From: Candidatus Niyogibacteria bacterium
GTDB taxonomy: Bacteria > Patescibacteriota > Minisyncoccia > HO2-45-28
DNA length: 64,000 nt
Assembly (NCBI GenBank): GCA_016432485.1
Contig: CP066691.1
Span: 281,762-345,761 of the forward strand
Direction: 5' to 3'
A program made the position numbers and the translations under genes. Shown here in pieces: positions 9,826 to 38,597 of the stretch. How positions within the stretch are numbered: position 1 is the stretch's first letter; each line of letters opens with the position of its first letter. The notes under the pieces were generated by a model that did not search any database, was not told where the DNA came from, and saw only the letters and a list, made by a program, of their open reading frames with translations.

Positions 9826-10524
9826 TCAAAAAGTCAGCCGGCGGAATGGCTCGGCATATTTTGTCCCGCTCTTTTTACCGTTTAGGCGCGCCCGTTCTAC
9901 AACTCCTTTTTCAAGCAGACGCATATCATGAAACTGGCTCTTATGCGCCCGCAGGGCTTTTAATTTCAGTCCGATGGTTTTAGAAATGTCCATAAATTTA
10001 TTCGGATTTTCAGGATTCCAAAACCAGGCCTCGTTTATTTGATGGGGTTTAAACTTCTTGGCCAATTCCGGAAAATAATATTTTGAACCGGCCGCGGGGT
10101 AAATGGCGTCAAAAACGGCTTCAGCCGACGTCCGATGGTCGCGATGCGAGCCGTAAAAACTAATAAAAGATTTATTGGCCGGGTCCGGAGAAACAATTAT
10201 ATCCGGCCCGACCATTCTGATAACTTTGACTATTTTTTTACGCAGGGCTTTGGTATTTTCAACCTCTCCGTCAAGTTCATCCAGAAACAAAACTTTTTTA
10301 ACTCCGACTATTTTGGCCGCGTTCATCTGTTCTTTGCGGCGCGTATTTTTCATTGCTCCGGCATTCAGGCCGGCTTTGTGCGCCCCTTTTGAGCCGTCAG
10401 TTATGACGCAATAAAAAATTTCATTGCCGTTTTTGGCAAGCTCCGCGGCGCTTCCGCTAAAACCAAAATCCGCGTCGTCGGGGTGCGGAGAAAATACCAG
10501 AAATTTTCTGACTTTCTTTGCCAT
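9826..10524 (-). CDS. PIG-L/LmbE family N-acetylglucosaminyl deacetylase
   Basis: N-terminal PHPDDADFGFSGS motif and downstream HRDH signature of the LmbE-like fold. Confidence 0.75.
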   Translation of the reverse strand: MAKKVRKFLVFSPHPDDADFGFSGSAAELAKNGNEIFYCVITDGSKGAHKAGLNAGAMKNTRRKEQMNAAKIVGVKKVLFLDELDGEVENTKALRKKIVKVIRMVGPDIIVSPDPANKSFISFYGSHRDHRTSAEAVFDAIYPAAGSKYYFPELAKKFKPHQINEAWFWNPENPNKFMDISKTIGLKLKALRAHKSQFHDMRLLEKGVVERARLNGKKSGTKYAEPFRRLTF

Positions 10525-10841
10525 AAAAAATAAAAAGTATTTTTACAATTTAACATATTATTCAAAAGATTAAAATGGTTGATATGCCCTTATTTTTTAT
10601 GTTTTAGGCAGGCGCATATGGCGGTTTTTTAGCTCCGCGGTATTTGATTTTTCAAACCGGCCGTTCTTTGCCCCAGCGGGCAAAGTCGGCCTGCGCTCTC
10701 GGCGCAAAATCGGCCTCAATGCCTGCGCGGCATAAAAAAGAGGCCGAACCGTGCTTTTGCGCCTCCGAGAGCTTTGAAAAACCAAACACCGCTTCGCTTT
10801 TGTAAAAACCGCCAAATGTGCTTGCCCATTACCTTAAAGTA

Positions 10842-10870
10842 TTGACAAAATATAATAATAGGAGTATAAT
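10842..10870 (+). promoter_or_regulatory. consensus sigma70 promoter (TTGACA, 17 nt, TATAAT)
   Basis: TTGACA at 10842-10847, a 17-nt spacer and TATAAT at 10865-10870, about 70 nt upstream of the 10940 ATG. RBS GAGGAGGGAG lies before the start. Confidence 0.6.
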
Positions 10871-10939
10871 AGGAGTTAAATAAATAGGCAGTTCTTAAGA
10901 CAAACCAAGCGCCCACGGGGCGAAAGAGGAGGGAGTAAA

Positions 10940-11725
10940 ATGAGTTTCCGGATGAAGGTGGTGCTGTCTTTGGCCTTGACAATGTTCGGTCTCACTGCCG
11001 TAACCCCGGCCTTCGGGGACGTGCTCACCTGCGGCAAGGACGTGATCGTGAACAGCGATTCAACCTACGCGCGGTTTGCGGGTCTTGACCCTGACTGCTA
11101 CGGCAGGGGCGTGGAGCCAGCCGTGGTCGTCTCGAGTAAGGAACGGCGCGAGGCCGCCGAGGCGAGGATACGCATCTTGGAATCCGAGCTCAAGAAAGCG
11201 GTGGAGCCGGCCGTGGTCATCCCGGAGAGCAGCAGGAAACGGCACGAGGCCGCCGAGGCGAGGATACGCATCTTGGAATCCGAGTCCAAGAAGGCAATGG
11301 ATGAACTCAAAAAGCTGGCAGCCCTACGGGCAAAACCGGCAATCAAACCGCCGGTGGTGAAAACCACCCTGACAGCGAAAAAAGCAACTACCGTCGCCGG
11401 CAAAAAGAAGTCCGGCCCCCCCACGCCATCCTGGGTATGGATTATGATTGGCGTGGTGCTCATCGCGATCCTGGCGTCATTACTCGCCAAAGTCGCAGAG
11501 AACTTTCCAAGCCGGCTTATCATGAAAGGTGGGCGCCGAGCCGCCGCACCGGCCGGCCCAACCGCGCCGCCCAACCCAGAGGCGCCACCCGCCCCCGAAA
11601 ACGCAACCCCGCCTGACACTCCCGCGCCTGCCGAAGAGCAGTCCGTCGATGAAAAACCGCCGACGGAACCAGACGAACCCTCAACGCCGTCAACTACGTC
11701 GGGCGTCAGCACTTCCAGACGCTAA
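10940..11725 (+). CDS. secreted/membrane protein with a tandem roughly 31-aa repeat, a central TM helix and a Pro/Thr-rich tail; high-GC gene
   Basis: Signal peptide. Two tandem 90-96-nt repeats (11111-11200 and 11201-11296), each containing EAAEARIRILESE. TM helix WVWIMIGVVLIAILASLLA. PAPT-rich C-terminus. Local GC is visibly much higher than the flanks. Confidence 0.6.
   Translation: MSFRMKVVLSLALTMFGLTAVTPAFGDVLTCGKDVIVNSDSTYARFAGLDPDCYGRGVEPAVVVSSKERREAAEARIRILESELKKAVEPAVVIPESSRKRHEAAEARIRILESESKKAMDELKKLAALRAKPAIKPPVVKTTLTAKKATTVAGKKKSGPPTPSWVWIMIGVVLIAILASLLAKVAENFPSRLIMKGGRRAAAPAGPTAPPNPEAPPAPENATPPDTPAPAEEQSVDEKPPTEPDEPSTPSTTSGVSTSRR
11111..11296 (+). repeat. tandem direct repeat, 2 units of 90 and 96 nt, inside the CDS
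   Basis: gtggagcc[a/g]gccgtggtc...cgaggccgccgaggcgaggatacgcatcttggaatccgag repeated, with a 40-nt identical core. Confidence 0.85.
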
Positions 11726-11746
11726 ACCCGCCTGGACGGAAACAAA

Positions 11747-11778
11747 GGGGCTCCCCCACCAGGGAGCCCCGTTTTTTA
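11747..11778 (+). terminator. intrinsic terminator
   Basis: GGGGCTCCC-ccacca-GGGAGCCCC followed by GTTTTTTATT. Confidence 0.7.
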
Positions 11779-11869
11779 TTAGATTTCTTTTTTCATATTT
11801 ACTTTTTACGTAATTCATACTATCCTGGGGACAGAAGAACACGGTTCATTTGCCGGGAGGAAATATCAG

Positions 11870-30271: not shown

Positions 30272-30556
30272 AAGGGGGATGCCGTGAAAATTCTACGCGC
30301 TCTTCTTAAGGCGCTAAATCCTCTCATCTGGCTTATTAATCTGTTTATGTACTTTGCGCATCTTGAGGGTCAGAGATCTTGTAAAGAATATCATCCTTAT
30401 GATTTTTTCTGGGATCTAAAATATTTTTAAGGCCGAACCGCCCAACCCTCTTGGGCGGTTTCAATTGTTGCAAAGCATTTAATTATTCATATAATGTATA
30501 GAGAAGTTCCCTTTAAATTCATTCCGCAGTAGCTCAATGGTAGAGCAGCTCCCTGT

Positions 30557-31128
30557 GAATAAAATAGTTCGTTTTTTGTGGTATACTTAAATGTGTATGC
30601 CAAAAGAAAAACGAACATACGCCGACCGCCGAGAGTATTTAAAAATGGCAGTGACCAAAAGACGACGAAGATTAAAAACACTGCTTGTAGAATATAAAGG
30701 CGGGAAATGCACGGTCTGCAGTTATAATAAAACCCCGTGGGCAATGGATCTTCATCATGTTGATGAATCCAAGAAATCATTTGATATGTCCTCACGCGGA
30801 CTTACCCGCTCATGGGAACGTCTTAAAAAAGAGGCAGATAAGTGTGTGTTGCTTTGTGCAAATTGTCACAGAGAAATACACGCCGGCGTAACGCAGCTTC
30901 CTAAAGTAATTTAGGTTGAAAAATCTCGGGATAACGGTGAAGCCCTAAATCTTTTGCATTAGATTGGGTAATACCGTGGGAACCTTTGCTTGTTCGGGGT
31001 TTACTCCGAGCGAAGTCGAGGAGCGCCGTAGAGACTAGATACCGAGATCCCGCCATTCATTTGAAATATTATTTAATGGAGGGGGGGAAAGATATAGTCC
31101 AACCCTAAAAGTAATTTTAGGACCGTTG
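30557..31128 (+). mobile_element. group I intron (about 572 nt) with an embedded HNH homing-endonuclease ORF
   Basis: Lies between tRNA halves. Exon 1 ends in T and the intron ends in G (accgttG). P7-like pairing GAGACTAGA / GATATAGTCC, with the latter close to the Tetrahymena AGATATAGTCGG segment. P9-like hairpin CCTAAAAgtaaTTTTAGG just before the 3' splice site. Confidence 0.6.
30591..30914 (+). CDS. HNH homing endonuclease (intron-encoded)
   Basis: CTVCS...DLHHVD...CANCHREIH HNH/zinc-finger motif; 107 aa, basic. Confidence 0.75.
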   Translation: MCMPKEKRTYADRREYLKMAVTKRRRRLKTLLVEYKGGKCTVCSYNKTPWAMDLHHVDESKKSFDMSSRGLTRSWERLKKEADKCVLLCANCHREIHAGVTQLPKVI

Positions 31129-31234
31129 TAAGGAGTTGGTTGTAGGTTCGAATCCTACCTGCGGAGCCAATAAACTAGATACGAACTCATTTTTTGAAGA
31201 TTAGACCTCTATCAGAGGTCGTATCCAGCGCGGT

Positions 31235-31292: not shown

Positions 31293-31331
31293 GCCCCCGC
31301 CTCCGGCATATGCCGGAGGCGGGGGGTTTTA
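31293..31331 (+). terminator. intrinsic terminator downstream of the tRNA
   Basis: CCCCGCCTCCGGCATATGCCGGAGGCGGGGGG followed by TTTT. Confidence 0.7.
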
Positions 31332-31464
31332 GGTTGAAATCAGGCCAAAAATGTGGGAAAGTAAGGGGGATATGAAGAATCTCATGGAAAAATTGAAAAA
31401 GGTGCTTATCAAAGAGATGTTTACACATTCGGTGTTCCGCTTGATGATTTAATCAAGTAGAAAT

Positions 31465-34398
31465 ATGTCGGTTTTTCTTAAAAAATATTTGGCTGAAAAA
31501 GTAGCTCTTCAAAAAATGGCCGGCTCTTTGAACCGCCTATCTTCTGTCTTGGCAAAATCAACGATTGACCTCAACCCGTATCAAATTCATGCGGCTCTTT
31601 ACGCATTTAACAGTCCGCTTTCTCGTGGCGCAATTTTGGCCGATGAAGTCGGCTTGGGTAAGACGATTGAAGCCGGCATTATCATATCCCAACTTTGGGC
31701 CGAAGGGAAGAGAAAGATATTAATTCTTGCCCCGGCCTCGTTAAGAAAACAGTGGCAAGATGAGTTGCTTTCAAAATTTGGAATTGAATCAGAAGTTTGG
31801 GACGGCCCCTCTTTTAGGGCGCAAACAGACATGGGAGAAAAGACACCCCTAACTTACAGTGGCGTTTTTATAATTTCTTACCATTTTGCTTACAGCCACC
31901 TTGAATTGATAAGGAAGCAAGGTTGGGCTGTTGTTGTAATAGATGAAGCCCATCGTTTTAGGCGTGTGTTCAAGGGAAGAGATGCCTCAAAAATGGCATA
32001 CGACATTCGGGAAATAATAAAAGATAAACCAAAGGTTTTGCTGACGGCAACACCCCTGCAAAACAGCCTTGAGGAATTATACGGGATAGCAAGTTTTATA
32101 GACGACAAGCTTCTCGGATCATCCTATAGTTTCAAAACGAAGTTCATACAGCCGATAAAGGACCAGTCGGGGTTAGCTAAATTGAGATTGGAGGAATTGA
32201 GGGCATTGATACGCGGGGAAGAAGGCGACGACCCGTCGTCAATCTCCGGAGTAATTACACGGACTTTGAGAAAACAAGTTTTGGAGTATGTGCAATTTAC
32301 CGACAGGACATCAATGACTTTTGACTTTACTCCCACCGAGGAAGAAGTTGAATTGTACGAGAAAGTTTCCGCATACCTCCAGCGTCCTAATGTGGCGGCC
32401 ATTACCGCGACGCAGAGAAATTTGATGATTCTCGTTTACAGAAAATTATTGGCCAGTTCGTCGTTCGCCATAGCCGACACCCTGAAGAAGTTAAGTGAGA
32501 ATCTAAAAAACGAATTGAAGTTGCGAAATAAAGAAGCAGTGGCCGAGGAGTTGAATCCGGAGTCAACGGCAGATGAGGGCCTTTTGGAAGAATTTGAAGA
32601 ATCAGAATTGGAGGGAGTAGAACAAGGTCAGAAGAAAGAAAAGCAACGCGTTGACGATACTTTTAGCGATGACGACATAAAAAAGGAAATAGAGGAGTTG
32701 GAAGGATATTATTCATTGGCAGTCAAAATTAAAGAAAACACAAAGGGTAAAGCGTTGATTAACGCCTTGTCGCAACTTTTCAAACAGGCCAGAGAAAAGA
32801 AGTGGCCTGAAAAAGCTGTGGTGTTCACAGAGTCAACGCGCACTCAGGACTATCTTTTAAAACTTCTCAAAGAAGCCGGAATTTCTTTTACGGAATTCAA
32901 CGGGTCAAATAACTCGCCCGAAGCACGAGAGGCATTCAATCGTTGGAAAAAGGAGTTTCCAGAAGCGGCATCTGTTGGTTCAGCATCTGCCAACACGCGC
33001 CAAGCTCTTATTCATGACTTCAGAACAAATACACAAGTCTTGCTTACCACAGAAGCGGGGGCGGAAGGATTAAACCTCCAGTTTGCAAATATTGTCATCA
33101 ATTATGATTTGCCGTGGAATCCTCAAAGAGTGGAACAGAGAATCGGCCGTTGCCACCGCTACGGCCAAAAGCACCAAGTGGTAGTTGCGAATTTTCTTAA
33201 TACAAAAAATTACGCCGATAAGCGAGTACTGGAATTGTTGAGCGAGAAACTAAATTTATTTAACGGACTTTTTGGAAGTTCCGATGAGATTCTTGGCGCT
33301 TTGGAATCCGGTCTTGATTTTGAAAAGAAGATACTTGAAATTTATCAAAACAGCAGAAGCCCTGAAGAATACGACAAAGCGTTTACAGAACTACAGGAAA
33401 GCTTGAAAGATGTTATCTCAAAAACAACCTTGCAATATAGAAACTTGTTATTGGAAAGCGCGGATCAAGCTGTTGCCGCATTATTCAAAAAAACGGAAGC
33501 GGAAACTAAAAAAGCGATTTCAGATTTTGACAGGGATTTGCTTTTTCTCTGCAAGCTCACGCTGGAAGAAAAGATAAAACCAACCGAGGATGAGGCGATT
33601 TTTGTGATAGATGGTTATAAATTTCCGATTGCTTTTCGAGAGCTTCGCGATGATGAAGAAGGTAAAATTTCCCGCGCGCACAAAGACCATCCAGTCATCA
33701 GTAAAATTATTGAAGATAATTTGAAACTGCAAACTAAGCCGATACCTTCTTTGATTTTTGAGCTTTCAAAACACGGCGGTAAAATATCCCAGTTGAGCGA
33801 CGCTAAAGTAAAAGAAGGATTTATATTTCTTTGGAAGTTAAAGATAGCCGGAGTCGAGACGGAAGAAATTTTAGTGCCGCTCGTTTTTCTCGAAAAAACA
33901 GAAGGCGAATTCAGCGCATTGGATGTGGCAATTGCCAATGAATTCATTGATGTGGAAAGTGTTGATTCTGAAAAAACACTTGAGAGTTCGCCTATTAAAA
34001 AAGAGTTTTTGCTTCAAACTTGGGAAAAATGGAAAAAGCCAGTTGTAGAAAGGTATCAGAAAAGAAATGAGCGTCTTTTTGACAGGGAGACGAACAGGAT
34101 AAACCGATATTACGACGACTACGCGCTTCGTGTTGAAGATAGGATGAAAAAGTCGGAAAATGAACAAAAGGATGTAAATCGTAGGAGAGATAATTCCTCC
34201 GACTTGGAAGAAAGGCGGAAGTTGCTCAAGCGAATTCAAGACATCAATATTGCTTTGGACAAGCTAAGAATCCAGCAGTTGAAGTTGAGACAAGAAGGTG
34301 CGAAATTGCGAGAAAAAGAACTGGACAATCTTTGGAAAACTCTGGAGCCGAAAATTTCCGAAGAAATGATTGCGATAACGCATTTCACCATTCAATAA
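31465..34398 (+). CDS. SNF2-family DNA-dependent ATPase/translocase with a roughly 350-aa C-terminal domain of unknown function
   Basis: Motif I DEVGLGKT, Ia PASLRKQWQDE, II DEAH, III TATPLQNSLEELY, helicase-C motifs (TEAGAEGLNLQ, QRIGRCHRYGQ). Acidic insert between lobes; coiled-coil C-terminus. Confidence 0.85.
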   Translation: MSVFLKKYLAEKVALQKMAGSLNRLSSVLAKSTIDLNPYQIHAALYAFNSPLSRGAILADEVGLGKTIEAGIIISQLWAEGKRKILILAPASLRKQWQDELLSKFGIESEVWDGPSFRAQTDMGEKTPLTYSGVFIISYHFAYSHLELIRKQGWAVVVIDEAHRFRRVFKGRDASKMAYDIREIIKDKPKVLLTATPLQNSLEELYGIASFIDDKLLGSSYSFKTKFIQPIKDQSGLAKLRLEELRALIRGEEGDDPSSISGVITRTLRKQVLEYVQFTDRTSMTFDFTPTEEEVELYEKVSAYLQRPNVAAITATQRNLMILVYRKLLASSSFAIADTLKKLSENLKNELKLRNKEAVAEELNPESTADEGLLEEFEESELEGVEQGQKKEKQRVDDTFSDDDIKKEIEELEGYYSLAVKIKENTKGKALINALSQLFKQAREKKWPEKAVVFTESTRTQDYLLKLLKEAGISFTEFNGSNNSPEAREAFNRWKKEFPEAASVGSASANTRQALIHDFRTNTQVLLTTEAGAEGLNLQFANIVINYDLPWNPQRVEQRIGRCHRYGQKHQVVVANFLNTKNYADKRVLELLSEKLNLFNGLFGSSDEILGALESGLDFEKKILEIYQNSRSPEEYDKAFTELQESLKDVISKTTLQYRNLLLESADQAVAALFKKTEAETKKAISDFDRDLLFLCKLTLEEKIKPTEDEAIFVIDGYKFPIAFRELRDDEEGKISRAHKDHPVISKIIEDNLKLQTKPIPSLIFELSKHGGKISQLSDAKVKEGFIFLWKLKIAGVETEEILVPLVFLEKTEGEFSALDVAIANEFIDVESVDSEKTLESSPIKKEFLLQTWEKWKKPVVERYQKRNERLFDRETNRINRYYDDYALRVEDRMKKSENEQKDVNRRRDNSSDLEERRKLLKRIQDINIALDKLRIQQLKLRQEGAKLREKELDNLWKTLEPKISEEMIAITHFTIQ

Positions 34399-34399
34399 T

Positions 34400-35374
34400 A
34401 TGTCAACGGAAATTAAACAAAAAAAACAGGACTTGGGAATTTTTTACACCGACCAGAGAATCGTGAGTTTTATATATGATATTCTTTCTGTCTGGAAAGC
34501 AAAAGAGGACGAGGATTTAAAGCGTTGGGAGAGTCGAAAACCTCATGCTCACTATCCGTCAGTTATTGATCCGGCTTGCGGCGAGGGAATCTTCTTAAAG
34601 AAAGCAGTGGAGTCCGGTTTTACCGGATACAATCCTACACATAAAGTGCCATATATTTTCGGTATTGATATAGATGAATCGGTTGTTGATAAATGGGAAT
34701 CTGTTGAGCTTCTAAATTTTTTCCACGAAGACAGAAGGGCAATGAAAAATCACTTTTATGGCCAAAACGGATTGCTTAATCTGCCGAATAGAAAATTGCC
34801 TTACAAAAAAATGGAAGACGGACTTGTACAATTTGATGCGGTTGTTGGTAATCCGCCGTATGGAGGCATCGGTCTTAAAGAAGAAGAAATGAGGGGCAAA
34901 TTGGCGGCATCCCTTTTGGAGTACGAGATATGGAAATACGCTTTTGATATACAAATAAGCAAGCAGGGAAATATGTTTGGATCCATGGCCTCTCAAAAGG
35001 ACATTGTAAATAGATTGAGAAATATGCCCATCGAAATTTTATTTCTAGAGAGATTTATACAACTTGCAAAGCCGGGCGGTTGGATAGCTATCATTATTCC
35101 AGACGGCATTTTAACCAATTCAAATTCTCACTATGTACGCGAATTTGTTAGCGAGAAAGCAAGAGTGGAAGCAATTGTTTCTTTGCCGCGAGACGCTTTC
35201 AAAAATGTTGGCACAACAGCCAAAACCAGCATTTTATTTTTACAAAAATATAAAGACCAAGGGAAAGAGCGAGATTTAAACTATCCGGTTTTTCTCGCTT
35301 CAGTCGAATCTCTTGAAGAAAAATATTTTAAAATTATAAAAGATGCTTACCAAAAGCATTATACAAAAATATGA
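34400..35374 (+). CDS. gamma-class N6-adenine DNA methyltransferase (HsdM/Eco57I-like catalytic module without TRD)
   Basis: Motif I DPACGEGIFL and motif IV VVGNPPYGG; the start is 2 nt after the SNF2 stop. Confidence 0.8.
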   Translation: MSTEIKQKKQDLGIFYTDQRIVSFIYDILSVWKAKEDEDLKRWESRKPHAHYPSVIDPACGEGIFLKKAVESGFTGYNPTHKVPYIFGIDIDESVVDKWESVELLNFFHEDRRAMKNHFYGQNGLLNLPNRKLPYKKMEDGLVQFDAVVGNPPYGGIGLKEEEMRGKLAASLLEYEIWKYAFDIQISKQGNMFGSMASQKDIVNRLRNMPIEILFLERFIQLAKPGGWIAIIIPDGILTNSNSHYVREFVSEKARVEAIVSLPRDAFKNVGTTAKTSILFLQKYKDQGKERDLNYPVFLASVESLEEKYFKIIKDAYQKHYTKI

Positions 35375-36198
35375 GCAAGAAAAATTTAGTTCAAATAACA
35401 ACAGATGAAAAAGGTCGGGAAATCGTAATGGTACGAGTGGATAAAACCCTGAAAGAAATGATGGAAGAAAAACCATCAAGTAGATGGAATGCTGCTTACT
35501 GGCATCCAACCTATGTTAAAAATTCAGAAGAAATAGCAGCAAGTAATTTTTCTGTAATTAAAATAGGCGACGCGGAAGAAAGATTGACTTATGGCGCAAT
35601 CGTTACTGGCGGGAAAAATTATGAGGGGAAGGGAGTATTTTTAGTCAATCAGGGAGATATCCAATTTACCGGATTAGATAATACGAATTTGAAAGAAGTT
35701 AAAAAAGCTTCTCCTTGGAATATTGAACGCGCAAAGGTTAAACTTAATTCTTTGATTTTAGCTCGATCTGGAGTTGGAGGAGTTGGTAAAAATCGAATTA
35801 CTATTATAACCAAGCCAATGAATGCGGTGGTAGATAGTTTTGTTGATGTTTTAGACCTAGACGATAAAAAAATTAATCCTGTTTATGTACTTGTCTTTTG
35901 GAAAACTATGTTTGGGAAATTACAAATTGAAAGAATAATAAATGGCGTTGGAACTGTAAATATTAGTTTTGATGAAATTAGAGAAATGAAAATACTTGAT
36001 ATTTCGGAAGGTGTTCAAGGCAATATTGAATCCGAATATAAAAAAATATCTGTCTTTCACGACAAGGCAATGGAAGCAAAGAAAAAGGGCAAGGATGTGG
36101 AATACAAAGCTAACATGGAAACCGCCGAGAGAATGCTGAAAGATTTAATCGCTAAAACCGAAGCCGTTATTCGCGGCGAGAAAAAAGATGTAATTTAA
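35371..36198 (+). CDS. HsdS-like DNA specificity protein with a single target-recognition domain
   Basis: TRD-like pattern (LTYGAIVTGG..., LILARSGVGGVGKNRITI, INGVGTVNISFDEIREMKILDISE) plus a helical conserved region. Overlaps the MTase stop by 4 nt. Confidence 0.7.
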   Translation: MSKKNLVQITTDEKGREIVMVRVDKTLKEMMEEKPSSRWNAAYWHPTYVKNSEEIAASNFSVIKIGDAEERLTYGAIVTGGKNYEGKGVFLVNQGDIQFTGLDNTNLKEVKKASPWNIERAKVKLNSLILARSGVGGVGKNRITIITKPMNAVVDSFVDVLDLDDKKINPVYVLVFWKTMFGKLQIERIINGVGTVNISFDEIREMKILDISEGVQGNIESEYKKISVFHDKAMEAKKKGKDVEYKANMETAERMLKDLIAKTEAVIRGEKKDVI

Positions 36199-36203
36199 TT
36201 TTT

Positions 36204-37997
36204 ATGCCAGAACAAAGGTCGGAAAATTCTTATATCGTAAACGACATCTTACCGTTTCTGGCAAGCAATTTTGGCTACCCGATTCATGACGCGGAGCGAG
36301 TAAAAATAAACGATGTTCCGATTTTTCGGCCAAGCGGCGGCAGAAGTGGGTCCACAATTGATATTGTCTACTATCATAACGGGGAGCCAGTTCTTCTCAT
36401 TGAAGCAAAAACTAAACATAAAACTCATGAGTCCGCATTGATAGAAGCAAAGAATTATCTAAAAAACTTTCCCATAGACAAACCGGAGTTTGCTCCGTCT
36501 GGCTTGCCCCCAAAAATTTTGGCAACAACAGTCGGTAAAAACATTAAATTTTACAAATGGAGCATAGATTATTCAAAACCAATTCCGGATTTTATAACCG
36601 AAGAAATTGAGGTTTTATCATTTGAGAAGTTGCTTTCCTACTACGGATTAATTAAAGAATATAAGGCGCGCATTTTAGAGCCCAAAAACTTTGCCACGGA
36701 TTTTTTTGACGAACTAATTTCTATTTTCAAATTTCATAAAAAAGAGAAAAAAATAACAAAGGATGTTGTCAAAGAAGTTGTTTATCAAATTCACAATTAT
36801 TTGCTGAATCCAAAAAAATACACCGGCGATTATCCTTACACCGAATTGGACTTACAAGGACAAAAAGCCGTTCGCGATCTGTTTAAGCGATTTGATTTTG
36901 TCGCTTCGCTTGGCCCGGAAATAGCCAAAGAATTTCGCAAGTCGATTTTGAGATCTTTTCAAGGCGAAGAATTCAATCAGTACCTTACCGAAAAATGCGT
37001 TATAGATTTTGTTTTCGGTCTGATTGGCAAATTGAACAAACACACGAAAGTTTTGGATTTCGAGTGTGGTAGTGGAGGATTTTTGGCGACGGCAGTCAAT
37101 CAGAACAATTTGGATTTGGAAAATGTGATGGGGATTGATATTGAGGACTTGCCTTATATCATCGCCAAAACTTACTTTGCTCTGTACTTCGGAAAAACCG
37201 GTGAGGGGTTGAATCTTGTCCCAATAAAGAAAGATAACGGCTTGTTTTATCACGGCAAGAATTGGGATTTAGTTGTGGGCAATCCCGCCGGAAGCAGTAA
37301 ATACGAACATGGCGATGAAGATAAAATTTTTGAGAATCTAAATAGTGATTTAAATAACGACGACAAAAAAGATAAAATTTCGGAGTACAATTTGTCAATT
37401 CAGCAAGCGATTCAATCCGCTCGCGTTGGCGGCAAGATTTGTTTGATACTGCCTGAAGGAGTGTTTTCAAATTCTCAAGACGAGTTTTTAAGAAAATATA
37501 TCGCCAAATATTGCAATATATTGGCAATCGTGAGCTTGCCACCGGGGTCGTTCAGAAGAGGAACAACAGTAAGCCAGTTAAGGAGAGGCGCACAATCTGC
37601 TTCAATGAAAATGTCTATTGTGTACGCGGAAAAAACCAGAGAGGTCAGGAAAAAAGAAGGATTGGAAGTTGATTTGAGGCATTTGGACTACCCGATATTT
37701 TTAGCGCACATTGATAAGGTTGATTCCGGATCAGGCGAAATCAGTGAATGGCTGGAGGAAAGATTAAACGTTGTGTTGGAGCAATGGAAAGAGTGGCAGA
37801 ATAAAGCTGAATTGAATGATATTGAAAAAATAACCACAAAGCTTGATAAAGAAGAAAAGATAAAAGAAAATCAAAAAACTTTGTTTAGCAAGGTCGAGCT
37901 CGACAAGACAAACATAGAAAAAAGTAAAAAGATAAAACCAAAAGAGGGTAAGTCAGAAACAAAGATAAGCAAAAACTTGGAAGATTTATTAAGTTAA
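36204..37997 (+). CDS. HsdR_N-type PD-(D/E)xK nuclease fused to a paralogous N6-MTase-like domain with a degenerate motif IV (NPAG) and a Lys-rich coiled-coil tail
   Basis: N-terminus GSTIDIVYYHNGEPVLLIEAKTK (D...ExK). MTase-like domain has motif I LDFECGSGGFLATAV but VVGNPAGSS in place of NPPY. Collinear similarity to the 34400-35374 protein (MGIDIE vs FGIDID, GGKICLILPEGV vs GGWIAIIIPDGI, AIVSLPP vs AIVSLPR). Confidence 0.7.
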   Translation: MPEQRSENSYIVNDILPFLASNFGYPIHDAERVKINDVPIFRPSGGRSGSTIDIVYYHNGEPVLLIEAKTKHKTHESALIEAKNYLKNFPIDKPEFAPSGLPPKILATTVGKNIKFYKWSIDYSKPIPDFITEEIEVLSFEKLLSYYGLIKEYKARILEPKNFATDFFDELISIFKFHKKEKKITKDVVKEVVYQIHNYLLNPKKYTGDYPYTELDLQGQKAVRDLFKRFDFVASLGPEIAKEFRKSILRSFQGEEFNQYLTEKCVIDFVFGLIGKLNKHTKVLDFECGSGGFLATAVNQNNLDLENVMGIDIEDLPYIIAKTYFALYFGKTGEGLNLVPIKKDNGLFYHGKNWDLVVGNPAGSSKYEHGDEDKIFENLNSDLNNDDKKDKISEYNLSIQQAIQSARVGGKICLILPEGVFSNSQDEFLRKYIAKYCNILAIVSLPPGSFRRGTTVSQLRRGAQSASMKMSIVYAEKTREVRKKEGLEVDLRHLDYPIFLAHIDKVDSGSGEISEWLEERLNVVLEQWKEWQNKAELNDIEKITTKLDKEEKIKENQKTLFSKVELDKTNIEKSKKIKPKEGKSETKISKNLEDLLS

Positions 37998-38001
37998 AAA
38001 T

Positions 38002-38283
38002 ATGAAAAAAGATAATAAAACAATAGGTATTACAATTCGTTTTTTCACCAACGATCTGCCGGGTCGTGTAGGAACCAAAAAGGAACACACACCATTTTGG
38101 ACTTGTGGCAACGTTCATCTCGAGGCGAACAAAACAAAAGGAATAAAACCTCAAGATGAAATGTTCAATTACTTTGAAGATATTCCCCGCGCAATTAAGG
38201 TGGTTTTAAGCAAAAGTAAATTGGTAGCCGTTGAAGATGTTGCGTATAGCATGAGAGCAGAGAAAAGAAGAAAAACAAGTTGA
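38002..38283 (+). CDS. small hypothetical protein, last gene of the operon
   Basis: 93 aa; begins 4 nt after the upstream stop. Confidence 0.4.
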   Translation: MKKDNKTIGITIRFFTNDLPGRVGTKKEHTPFWTCGNVHLEANKTKGIKPQDEMFNYFEDIPRAIKVVLSKSKLVAVEDVAYSMRAEKRRKTS

Positions 38284-38568: not shown

Positions 38569-38597
38569 AAACGGACGGGATAGGTCCGTTTTTTTGT
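38569..38597 (+). terminator. intrinsic terminator
   Basis: AACGGAC-gggatag-GTCCGTT followed by TTTTTTG. Confidence 0.65.

Follow-up and report, generated by a model that had tools for sequence, protein, structure and literature searches.

A putative modular restriction-modification cassette pairing a Snf2 ATPase with a nuclease-bearing methylase paralogue in Candidatus Niyogibacteria

What kind of system is encoded by a run of closely packed genes whose parts can each be recognised and whose combination fits no standard restriction-modification (RM) type? The question is raised by positions 31465 to 38283 of a 64,000-nucleotide stretch of a Candidatus Niyogibacteria genome (contig CP066691.1; the whole stretch is called the window here, and coordinates refer to it unless a related locus is named). 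Five open reading frames (ORFs) follow one another there on the + strand. These are a Snf2-family ATPase gene (31465-34398, 977 aa), the N6-adenine DNA methyltransferase gene M (34400-35374, 324 aa), the specificity-subunit gene S (35371-36198, 275 aa), the gene RM' (36204-37997, 597 aa), whose product joins a nuclease to an HsdM-like domain and would be the restriction subunit, and a 93-aa ORF with no assigned function (38002-38283). An original prediction, made from the letters of the window, had proposed a five-gene RM-like defence system at this place. Its ORFs and their close packing, with spacings of +1, -4, +5 and +4 nt in that order, were reproduced exactly, its domain calls held in Pfam and PADLOC profile searches of each protein, and the motifs that it had read by eye were all found. 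The conserved unit is four of the five genes, Snf2-M-S-RM', or three genes where M and S are fused. We favour, with moderate confidence, a full mechanistic reading in which this unit is a methylation-based RM system of modular, uncharacterised architecture bridging Types I, IIB and ISP. The cassette stays within the RM paradigm and is not categorically new.

A gene order shared by distant genomes

RM' has a sporadic distribution. A word-indexed search returned at least 304 homologues, the best 120 of which are all at least 49% identical; most of these 120 are about 590-606 aa long, and beside them there are a shorter group of about 540 aa and a few fragments. Only 25 RM' representatives reached E<=1e-30 in a set of 1.84 billion cluster representatives, and a scan of one genome per GTDB species gave 37 loci among 185,579 species representatives, all of them metagenome-assembled genomes. 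The 37 loci span Patescibacteria, Nitrospirota, Nitrospinae, Planctomycetota, Actinomycetota, Omnitrophota, Elusimicrobia, Firestonebacteria, Gammaproteobacteria and one Methanosarcinales bin. Neither the 72,556 plasmids nor the 50,697 phage records searched by tblastn contained a full-length RM' homologue; they gave distant methyltransferase (MTase)-domain matches only.

Architectures were read by comparing the five window proteins with all retrieved loci (numbered with the prefix L below) in tblastn. About 20 distinct loci, spread over roughly ten phyla, have the order Snf2-M-S-RM', and its recurrence in so many unrelated genomes places the cassette far beyond chance. The reverse test gave the same picture, as three Snf2 homologues of 57-71% identity, picked solely for their long contigs, all (3/3) lie directly 5' of an M-S gene and an RM' gene. 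Synteny and reverse test together link the Snf2 gene to the others. An unconserved neighbourhood with an unrelated helicase, which the original prediction had named as its counter-case, is largely refuted by this synteny.

The helicase as a component of the system needs some qualification. It is linked, and its presence tracks a C-terminal tail on RM' that is described below, so it is no unrelated neighbour. However, M-S-RM' stands alone in at least eight loci, and Snf2 is thus an optional add-on module, not part of an obligatory core. The eight loci with enough upstream DNA (L003, L014, L020, L027, L034, L035, L036 and L041) have housekeeping flanks, including genes for IlvD, acetolactate synthase, PmbA/TldD, an amidotransferase and RlmN, and no substitute helicase occurs among the flanking genes.

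One subclade carries a further gene. A DUF3800 gene (Pfam 1.7e-17) lies between the M-S gene and RM' in L028 (9116-9859 of that locus), L024 and L030, and is broken in L013 (4371-5117); it may be an accessory component.

The subunits and the tail that goes with the motor

M is a gamma-class N6-adenine DNA methyltransferase (Pfam N6_Mtase 1.7e-19, Eco57I 4.6e-13) with motif I DPACGEG, motif IV GNPPY and no target recognition domain (TRD) of its own. Pfam and motifs thus agree with the claim of a stand-alone MTase with intact NPPY. Among 32 tabulated M orthologues, 31 have NPP[YF] at motif IV, and L001 gave no hit in the motif scan. The best PDB match is RM.BsaXI (3.6e-14). Of 32 loci, 13 encode M and S as a single polypeptide and 19 as separate proteins, and in the window the two genes overlap by 4 nt. 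The fusions are Rosetta-stone evidence that M and S form one methyltransferase with one TRD.

S itself gave no Pfam match. It does match PADLOC Type I specificity models (Specificity_I 1.3e-12) in alignments that span half of each model, and the fused M-S orthologue in L043 matches Methylase_S. The specificity match and the single variable block bear out a separate, half-size S subunit. Over 33 sequences, conservation is 0.37-0.44 in the TRD (aa 46-165), 0.65-0.67 at aa 16-45 and 0.62-0.84 at aa 211-275. Identity to the window S is out of step with identity of the other cassette genes. Between the window and L006, nucleotide identity is 0.77-0.91 in Snf2, 0.54-0.65 in the core of M, 0.48-0.57 in the S TRD and 0.71-0.89 in RM', and it reaches 0.94 at the junction of the M C-terminus with the S N-terminus (35101-35400). 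Homology with L006 breaks off abruptly at about 31.47 kb and again at about 38.3-38.4 kb, with the 93-aa ORF inside the block. Mosaic identity with such abrupt ends is the pattern expected for a horizontally moving RM cassette with exchange of its specificity module.

A second low-identity segment (0.54-0.65) lies in central M (34501-35100) between highly similar flanks, in comparison with both L006 and L007, and insertions of about 60 aa further distinguish M orthologues from one another. It may be that part of M co-varies with the TRD and contributes to DNA recognition.

RM' carries both an HSDR_N match (6.8e-06) and an N6_Mtase match (4.1e-14) in Pfam, so that the nuclease is, as had been proposed, fused to an MTase-like paralogue with NPAG and not to the motor. 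The PD-(D/E)xK nuclease domain occupies aa 1-150, with D53, E67 and K69 as its triad (D53...E67-A-K69). An HsdM-like helical and Rossmann domain follows at aa 160-510, with motif I FECGSGG intact and GNPAG at motif IV, and then a conserved helix at aa 513-534; no TRD was found in RM'. M and RM' are paralogues, aligning with 26% identity across 279 aa (E=3e-15), and the paralogy runs through a '(L)xYP(V/I)FLA' segment before the C-terminal helix of each protein. The best PDB sequence match of RM' is the Type IIB enzyme BsaXI, and the closest solved relatives of M and RM' are BsaXI, HsdM and PacII.

The MTase-like domain of RM' had been called degenerate, a description that we would withdraw. 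Motif IV is NP[AS]G in all 35 homologues compared (36-100% identity), and the nuclease triad, FECGSGG and a tyrosine four residues past motif IV (Y367) are invariant in a 62-sequence alignment of closer RM' homologues. In a broader set, most sequences keep these features, with D...E[AS]K and [FL]ECGSGG in nearly all that are full-length. With NP(A/S)G and the motif I that binds S-adenosylmethionine (SAM) conserved family-wide, the domain is a variant maintained by selection, as opposed to a copy in decay. As motif IV reads NP(A/S)G and not NPPY, RM' probably no longer methylates.

A distant sister family (P0374, P0378, P0382, P0388 and P0403; about 500-527 aa, 27-34% identity to the window RM') has the same nuclease plus MTase-like layout, with NPPG or NPPA at motif IV and an aromatic residue four positions on. 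Its one context seen (L049) is on a short, uninformative contig. There may be a wider group of nuclease-fused HsdM-like proteins without the canonical aromatic residue.

The Snf2 protein is recognised by Pfam SNF2-rel_dom (6.9e-34) and Helicase_C (8.6e-24), and its Walker A GLGKT (K66) and DEAH (160-163) are invariant in 49 homologues. Its core is nearest to DISARM DrmD (PADLOC DrmD PDLC02619, 2.4e-184). The best NCBIfam match, DISARM_DrmD_b, scores 614 bits against a cut-off of 950 and aligns over aa 27-689 only; the PADLOC BrxHI/BrxHII model aligns to the C-terminal region, aa 504-936 (2.5e-66). The C-terminal part from about aa 690 to 977 (290 residues) is conserved, and AlphaFold2 (AF2) models it as an alpha+beta domain followed by a long helical hairpin, with a predicted local confidence (pLDDT) of 82-91. 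We propose that the protein serves as a double-stranded DNA translocase module.

How would a separate ATPase be joined to the rest? RM' ends in an extension of about aa 545-597 (37836-37994, + strand), made of a Lys-rich low-complexity linker and the conserved terminal motif ETKISKNLEDLL, for which the family consensus is '(E/K)TKIS..L.D(L/I)F', or TKISxxLxDLF. AF2 places a short terminal helix at residues 590-596 after the disordered linker. Tail and complete Snf2 are both present in 21 loci and both absent from 8 (Fisher p=5.7e-6, uncorrected for phylogeny); in the Snf2-less M-S-RM' loci RM' ends about 50 residues earlier, just past helix 513-534. Two degenerate loci are off this pattern, namely L021, where RM' is truncated, and L031, where a Snf2 remnant is found with no tail. 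When the RM' cores are arranged in a neighbour-joining tree, the loci without Snf2 are spread over at least four positions, and this scatter indicates that tail and motor were gained or lost together repeatedly. The co-occurrence and the joint gains and losses are the strongest available evidence for Snf2 as a functional, physically coupled module, and we propose that the tail is a Snf2-docking peptide.

Relation to known systems and a proposed mechanism

In agreement with the original prediction, each of the standard architectures Type I, Type IIB, Type ISP, DISARM and BREX fails in at least one defining feature. MADS does likewise. Architecture, catalytic motifs, M-S fusion and TRD mosaicism do fit RM systems in general, with methylation, cleavage and protection predicted from sequence. 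We found no description of such an architecture in searches of the literature on MADS, DISARM/DrmD, Type IIB/BsaXI, PacII, defence in Candidate Phyla Radiation (CPR) bacteria, or Snf2 proteins with RM subunits, and it is apparently undescribed.

Type IIB had been set aside, correctly as regards membership, yet BcgI/BsaXI-like Type IIB systems are the closest relatives. In these systems and in the cassette alike, the restriction subunit has an N-terminal PD-(D/E)xK nuclease on a gamma-class MTase fold without a TRD, and S is separate. The BsaXI complex is (RM)2S (PMC11997821) and that of BcgI 2RM:1S (PMC3874165), with an RM subunit that is an active methylase and an S that has two TRDs. The cassette departs from this in the NP(A/S)G motif IV of RM', in a distinct M with NPP[YF] that is often fused to S, in an S with one TRD, and in the Snf2 ATPase that about 20 of the roughly 29 informative loci encode. 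Eco57I-type Type IIG systems are organised as a bifunctional RM enzyme plus a separate M. The cassette is alike in having a nuclease-MTase fusion and a stand-alone methylase of the same family (Pfam PF07669 on both M and RM'); however, the Eco57I-type enzyme carries its own TRD and an active MTase, and neither an S protein nor an ATPase accompanies it.

The comparison with Type I is similarly mixed. M has N6_Mtase, DPACGEG and NPPY, but it scores 26 bits on the NCBIfam hsdM equivalog, for which the cut-off is 242.75, and has no HsdM_N domain. The 275-aa S has a single variable block whereas HsdS has two TRDs, the nuclease sits on RM' and not on the motor, and the sole ATPase is a separate Snf2/DrmD-like protein instead of HsdR, which unites an N-terminal PD-(D/E)xK nuclease and an SF2 motor in one chain. 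PacII is a non-canonical Type I system with M1M2S stoichiometry (PMC9613975). Type ISP enzymes (LlaGI, LlaBIII) are single polypeptides that combine nuclease, SF2 ATPase, MTase and TRD and use another family of helicase-like ATPase, whereas the functions of the cassette are split over three to four ORFs in every locus, with an extra pseudo-MTase domain besides.

Class 1 DISARM resembles the cassette in that DrmD is the nearest match of the Snf2 core and in the placing of a Snf2 helicase beside an N6-adenine methylase; the DISARM core triplet is DrmA (helicase), DrmB (DUF1998) and DrmC (PLD) (bioRxiv 10.1101/2021.12.28.474362). None of the three was found among the scanned neighbours of the window cassette, which reach about 4 kb to its 5' side and 6 kb to its 3' side, and none in L001 or L043-L045. 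The cassette has an S and a PD-(D/E)xK restriction subunit, both of which DISARM lacks, and its DrmD_b score is below the cut-off. Type 3 BREX and the BR systems are alike in having a Snf2 helicase with a conserved C-terminal extension beside an N6-adenine methylase; BrxHII and the BR helicases are Snf2 proteins with RapA-like C-terminal domains, and the systems are defined by a BrxC/DUF499 ATPase, a PglZ phosphatase and BrxA/BrxB homologues (PMC12839542). No BrxC/DUF499, PglZ, BrxA or BrxB was present among annotated neighbours (about 4-8 kb) in the window, L001 and L043-L045. Since the helicase core begins at about aa 27, the Snf2 protein has no N-terminal Tudor domain, unlike its BREX and BR counterparts. 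A BR system centred on DUF499 was rejected as a candidate because DUF499 is absent. For MADS, the MADS2 model (MAD2 methylase) gives 90.9 bits for M and 71.9 for RM' against a cut-off of 720, and the MADS5 model (MAD5 S-subunit) 33.9 bits against 400, far below equivalog level.

The mechanism that we favour would work as follows. M and S would together form an N6-methyladenine methyltransferase that recognises a short target through its one TRD and marks host DNA. RM' would be the restriction subunit, its PD-(D/E)xK nuclease carried by a TRD-less HsdM-like paralogue, and because RM' has no TRD its targeting must run through M-S. The paralogy of M and RM', taken with published complexes that hold two HsdM-fold subunits per S, suggests by analogy an M·S·RM' assembly with RM' in the second M position. 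RM' would dock on the conserved helices of S, as the second M does in Type I M2S, PacII M1M2S and BsaXI (RM)2S, and docking would bring the nuclease beside the recognition site. There the adenine/SAM pocket of RM' may sense methylation state. Beneath the second M position there would be no TRD and no target base presented, which would explain how catalysis could have been lost and SAM binding kept. In some genomes the three-gene M-S-RM' core would act alone, in a manner like Type IIB/IIG. In the four-gene form the TKISxxLxDLF tail would tether Snf2, adding ATP-driven translocation on double-stranded DNA, and so be functionally like Type I HsdR or the Type ISP motor.

Genomic setting, competing explanations and significance

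Upstream of the cassette is a tRNA gene (30523-31169, + strand) whose CCA end is encoded and whose anticodon loop contains a group I intron about 570 nt long. The intron-bearing tRNA of the original prediction is thus real, on the evidence of the Rfam match (RF00028, 30815-31121, 57.3 bits) and of exons read directly, and inside the intron is an HNH homing-endonuclease ORF (30591-30914; phrog_2255, 1.5e-29). ARAGORN calls no tRNA in the window, this split gene included. The anticodon is ambiguous, Thr-UGU or His-GUG, hinging on the splice sites, and in silico joining of exons gave many incompatible calls. The tRNA is a neighbour of the cassette and outside the system. A tRNA adjoins the cassette in none of the 19 scanned loci that contain Snf2, the sole tRNA found being about 5 kb off, and recurrent tRNA adjacency was not seen in the 26 related loci tested.

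Between tRNA and operon, a GC hairpin followed by a T run (31294-31325, + strand) has a perfect 14-bp stem with 13 GC pairs and is a strong intrinsic-terminator candidate. Just 5' of the Snf2 start codon is a weak sigma-70-like promoter match (31420-31448, + strand; TTTACA-17-GATGAT, 9/12 matches), a consensus match only. Past the cassette, a terminator-like hairpin (38573-38591, + strand), with a 7-bp stem and then TTTTTGTTT, is again a weak consensus match and could mark the end of the transcription unit.

The 93-aa ORF is where the five-gene system must give up a member. Among related loci it occurs only in the closest, L006, L007 and L009 (87-91% identity). Its product belongs to a family of 109 CPR proteins and has no match in Pfam, PADLOC, NCBIfam or PHROGs. 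Homologues of it trail other cassettes. One (L046, 8001-8282) stands at the 3' end of a cassette with a 1523-aa helicase-nuclease and RmuC, another (L047, 8001-8288) at the 3' end of a cassette of PLD-Snf2, an MmeI-like methylase and a trypsin-like protease, and a third (L048, 8001-8273) adjoins a short Snf2 gene on a virus-like contig. With homologues behind unrelated defence-like cassettes, the gene is not specific to this system, though it was co-transferred in the window's clade; it could be a marker of a defence-integration hotspot, or a mobile accessory or regulatory gene.

A horizontally acquired defence island had been suggested for the window, and of this the acquisition finds support and the island does not. 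GC content is 0.34-0.40 over 33-41 kb and about 0.44-0.47 elsewhere in the window, which together with the sharply bounded mosaic block supports horizontal acquisition. The neighbours are housekeeping genes or genes of no known role, encoding RarA/MgsA, Ham1, YggU, a Cas4-like PD-(D/E)xK protein, a CHAP-domain protein, winged helix-turn-helix proteins and TspO. PADLOC and Pfam searches of these neighbours revealed no recognisable defence island, giving only generic winged helix-turn-helix and Cas4-like PD-(D/E)xK matches. Another locus does have such a context. In L045 (1-18928) the Snf2/M-S/RM' cassette is on an apparent integrative element with a serine recombinase and a primase-like protein; a small HTH_17/MerR gene abuts the Snf2 start, and PDDEXK_1, trypsin-like, DUF4238 and OLD-like AAA_15/TOPRIM genes lie 3' of the cassette. 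This is a genuine defence-island context.

Could RM' still be an active methyltransferase? M and RM' would then be two methylases on one S, each modifying one strand in the manner of PacII M1M2S or an Eco57I-type pair, with NP(A/S)G...Y as a functional variant of motif IV and the nuclease merely riding along. We regard this as unlikely, though it is the alternative to be taken most seriously. Besides FECGSGG, many Rossmann-fold residues of RM' are invariant, the conserved motif IV variant shows no decay, Tyr367 is invariant among the closer homologues, and the sister family also places an aromatic residue after its NPPG or NPPA. There is precedent for heteromeric M1M2S complexes (PMC9613975, PMC5100572), and a second active methylase would remove the obstacle that hemimethylation poses when there is one TRD; that one-strand difficulty keeps the idea alive. 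Against it, an aromatic residue at position 4 of motif IV is present in 0 of 35 RM' sequences and in 31 of 32 M orthologues (all in which the motif was found), RM' brings no TRD and S supplies just one, and AF2 confidence at the motif IV loop of RM' is below 50.

The other explanations fare much worse. An ordinary Type IIB system like BcgI/BsaXI, or one resembling Type I, beside an unrelated helicase gene would account for BsaXI being the best PDB sequence match of both M and RM' and for the Snf2-less loci. Synteny largely refutes it: Snf2 lies immediately upstream in about 20 loci across phyla, with a 1-nt gap in the window, and the reverse test points the same way. Snf2 also matches the RM' tail perfectly wherever both genes are intact, through several joint gains and losses, and the separate M, single-TRD S and non-canonical RM' motif IV are none of them Type IIB features. 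We hold it to be very improbable. It is just as hard to credit a partial or minimal form of Class 1 DISARM (DrmD plus DrmMI) or Type 3 BREX (BrxHII plus PglXI). The strong PADLOC DrmD and BrxHI/BrxHII matches, DISARM_DrmD_b as best NCBIfam match, and the pairing of a Snf2 helicase with an N6-adenine methylase in both systems speak for such an origin, but the sub-threshold DrmD_b score and the lack of DrmA/B/C, BrxC and PglZ among the annotated neighbours within roughly 4-8 kb speak against it, as do a small, Eco57I/HsdM-like M paired with a separate S and the presence of a dedicated PD-(D/E)xK nuclease. Very little credence, finally, is due to a non-defence role as an epigenetic or chromosome-maintenance module, in which Snf2 aids access of the methylase and the nuclease-like domain serves repair or is inactive. 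The window's neighbours and the biosynthetic genes around several Snf2-less loci would suit that role. However, the PD-(D/E)xK triad persists in nearly all full-length RM' sequences, the TRD shuffling and mosaic transfer between phyla are typical of RM systems, the distribution is sporadic, and L004 and L045 have defence or mobile-element surroundings.

Several points also weigh against the modular RM reading that we prefer. One TRD and one active M may methylate a single strand, and the mechanism gives no account of how the Snf2-less form spares freshly replicated host DNA. The argument for an inactive RM' is drawn from the missing aromatic residue, and both Y367 and the motif IV of the sister family leave room for a functional variant pocket. 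The proposed contact of tail with Snf2 is read from their co-occurrence, the AF2 model of the Snf2 protein is poor overall (predicted TM-score, pTM, 0.43), and its C-terminal domain could be given no assignment. Every homologue derives from an uncultured organism. There is also an orphan RM' in L004/L011 (about 9959-11794), which keeps its nuclease motif intact, as well as NPAG and the C-terminal tail, with no M, S or Snf2 nearby. Its neighbours are AbiEii, HNH, 966-aa multi-methylase, HATPase_c_4 and SocA_Panacea genes, and it could be a relic or a part taken up by a different system.

A bolder proposal, to which we attach only tentative belief, goes beyond the modular RM reading and would make the cassette a distinct RM type. 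A dead, SAM-binding pseudo-methyltransferase would fill the second M slot of a Type I-like M2S core, carry the nuclease, read methylation, and recruit a chromatin-remodeller-type Snf2 through a docking peptide, the motor being a plug-in that is repeatedly gained and lost. If this were true, the family would bridge Type IIB, Type I, Type ISP and the Snf2-methylase pairs of DISARM and BREX.

If confirmed, the cassette would represent a new architectural class of RM and a natural experiment in modularity, the same core occurring with and without an ATP motor and a peptide tail marking the difference. The link between fixed-distance cutters (Type IIB/IIG) and translocating ones (Type I/ISP) would then be directly testable. 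It would also provide a simple bacterial model for the coupling of Snf2 to DNA methylation machinery, relevant to DISARM DrmD and BREX BrxHII and, by analogy, to eukaryotic DDM1/LSH, and a clear case of a pseudo-enzyme, here a dead methylase, reused as scaffold or sensor. Single-TRD, swappable M-S modules with a separate nuclease could help in engineering new specificities, and the system enlarges what little is known of defence in CPR bacteria.

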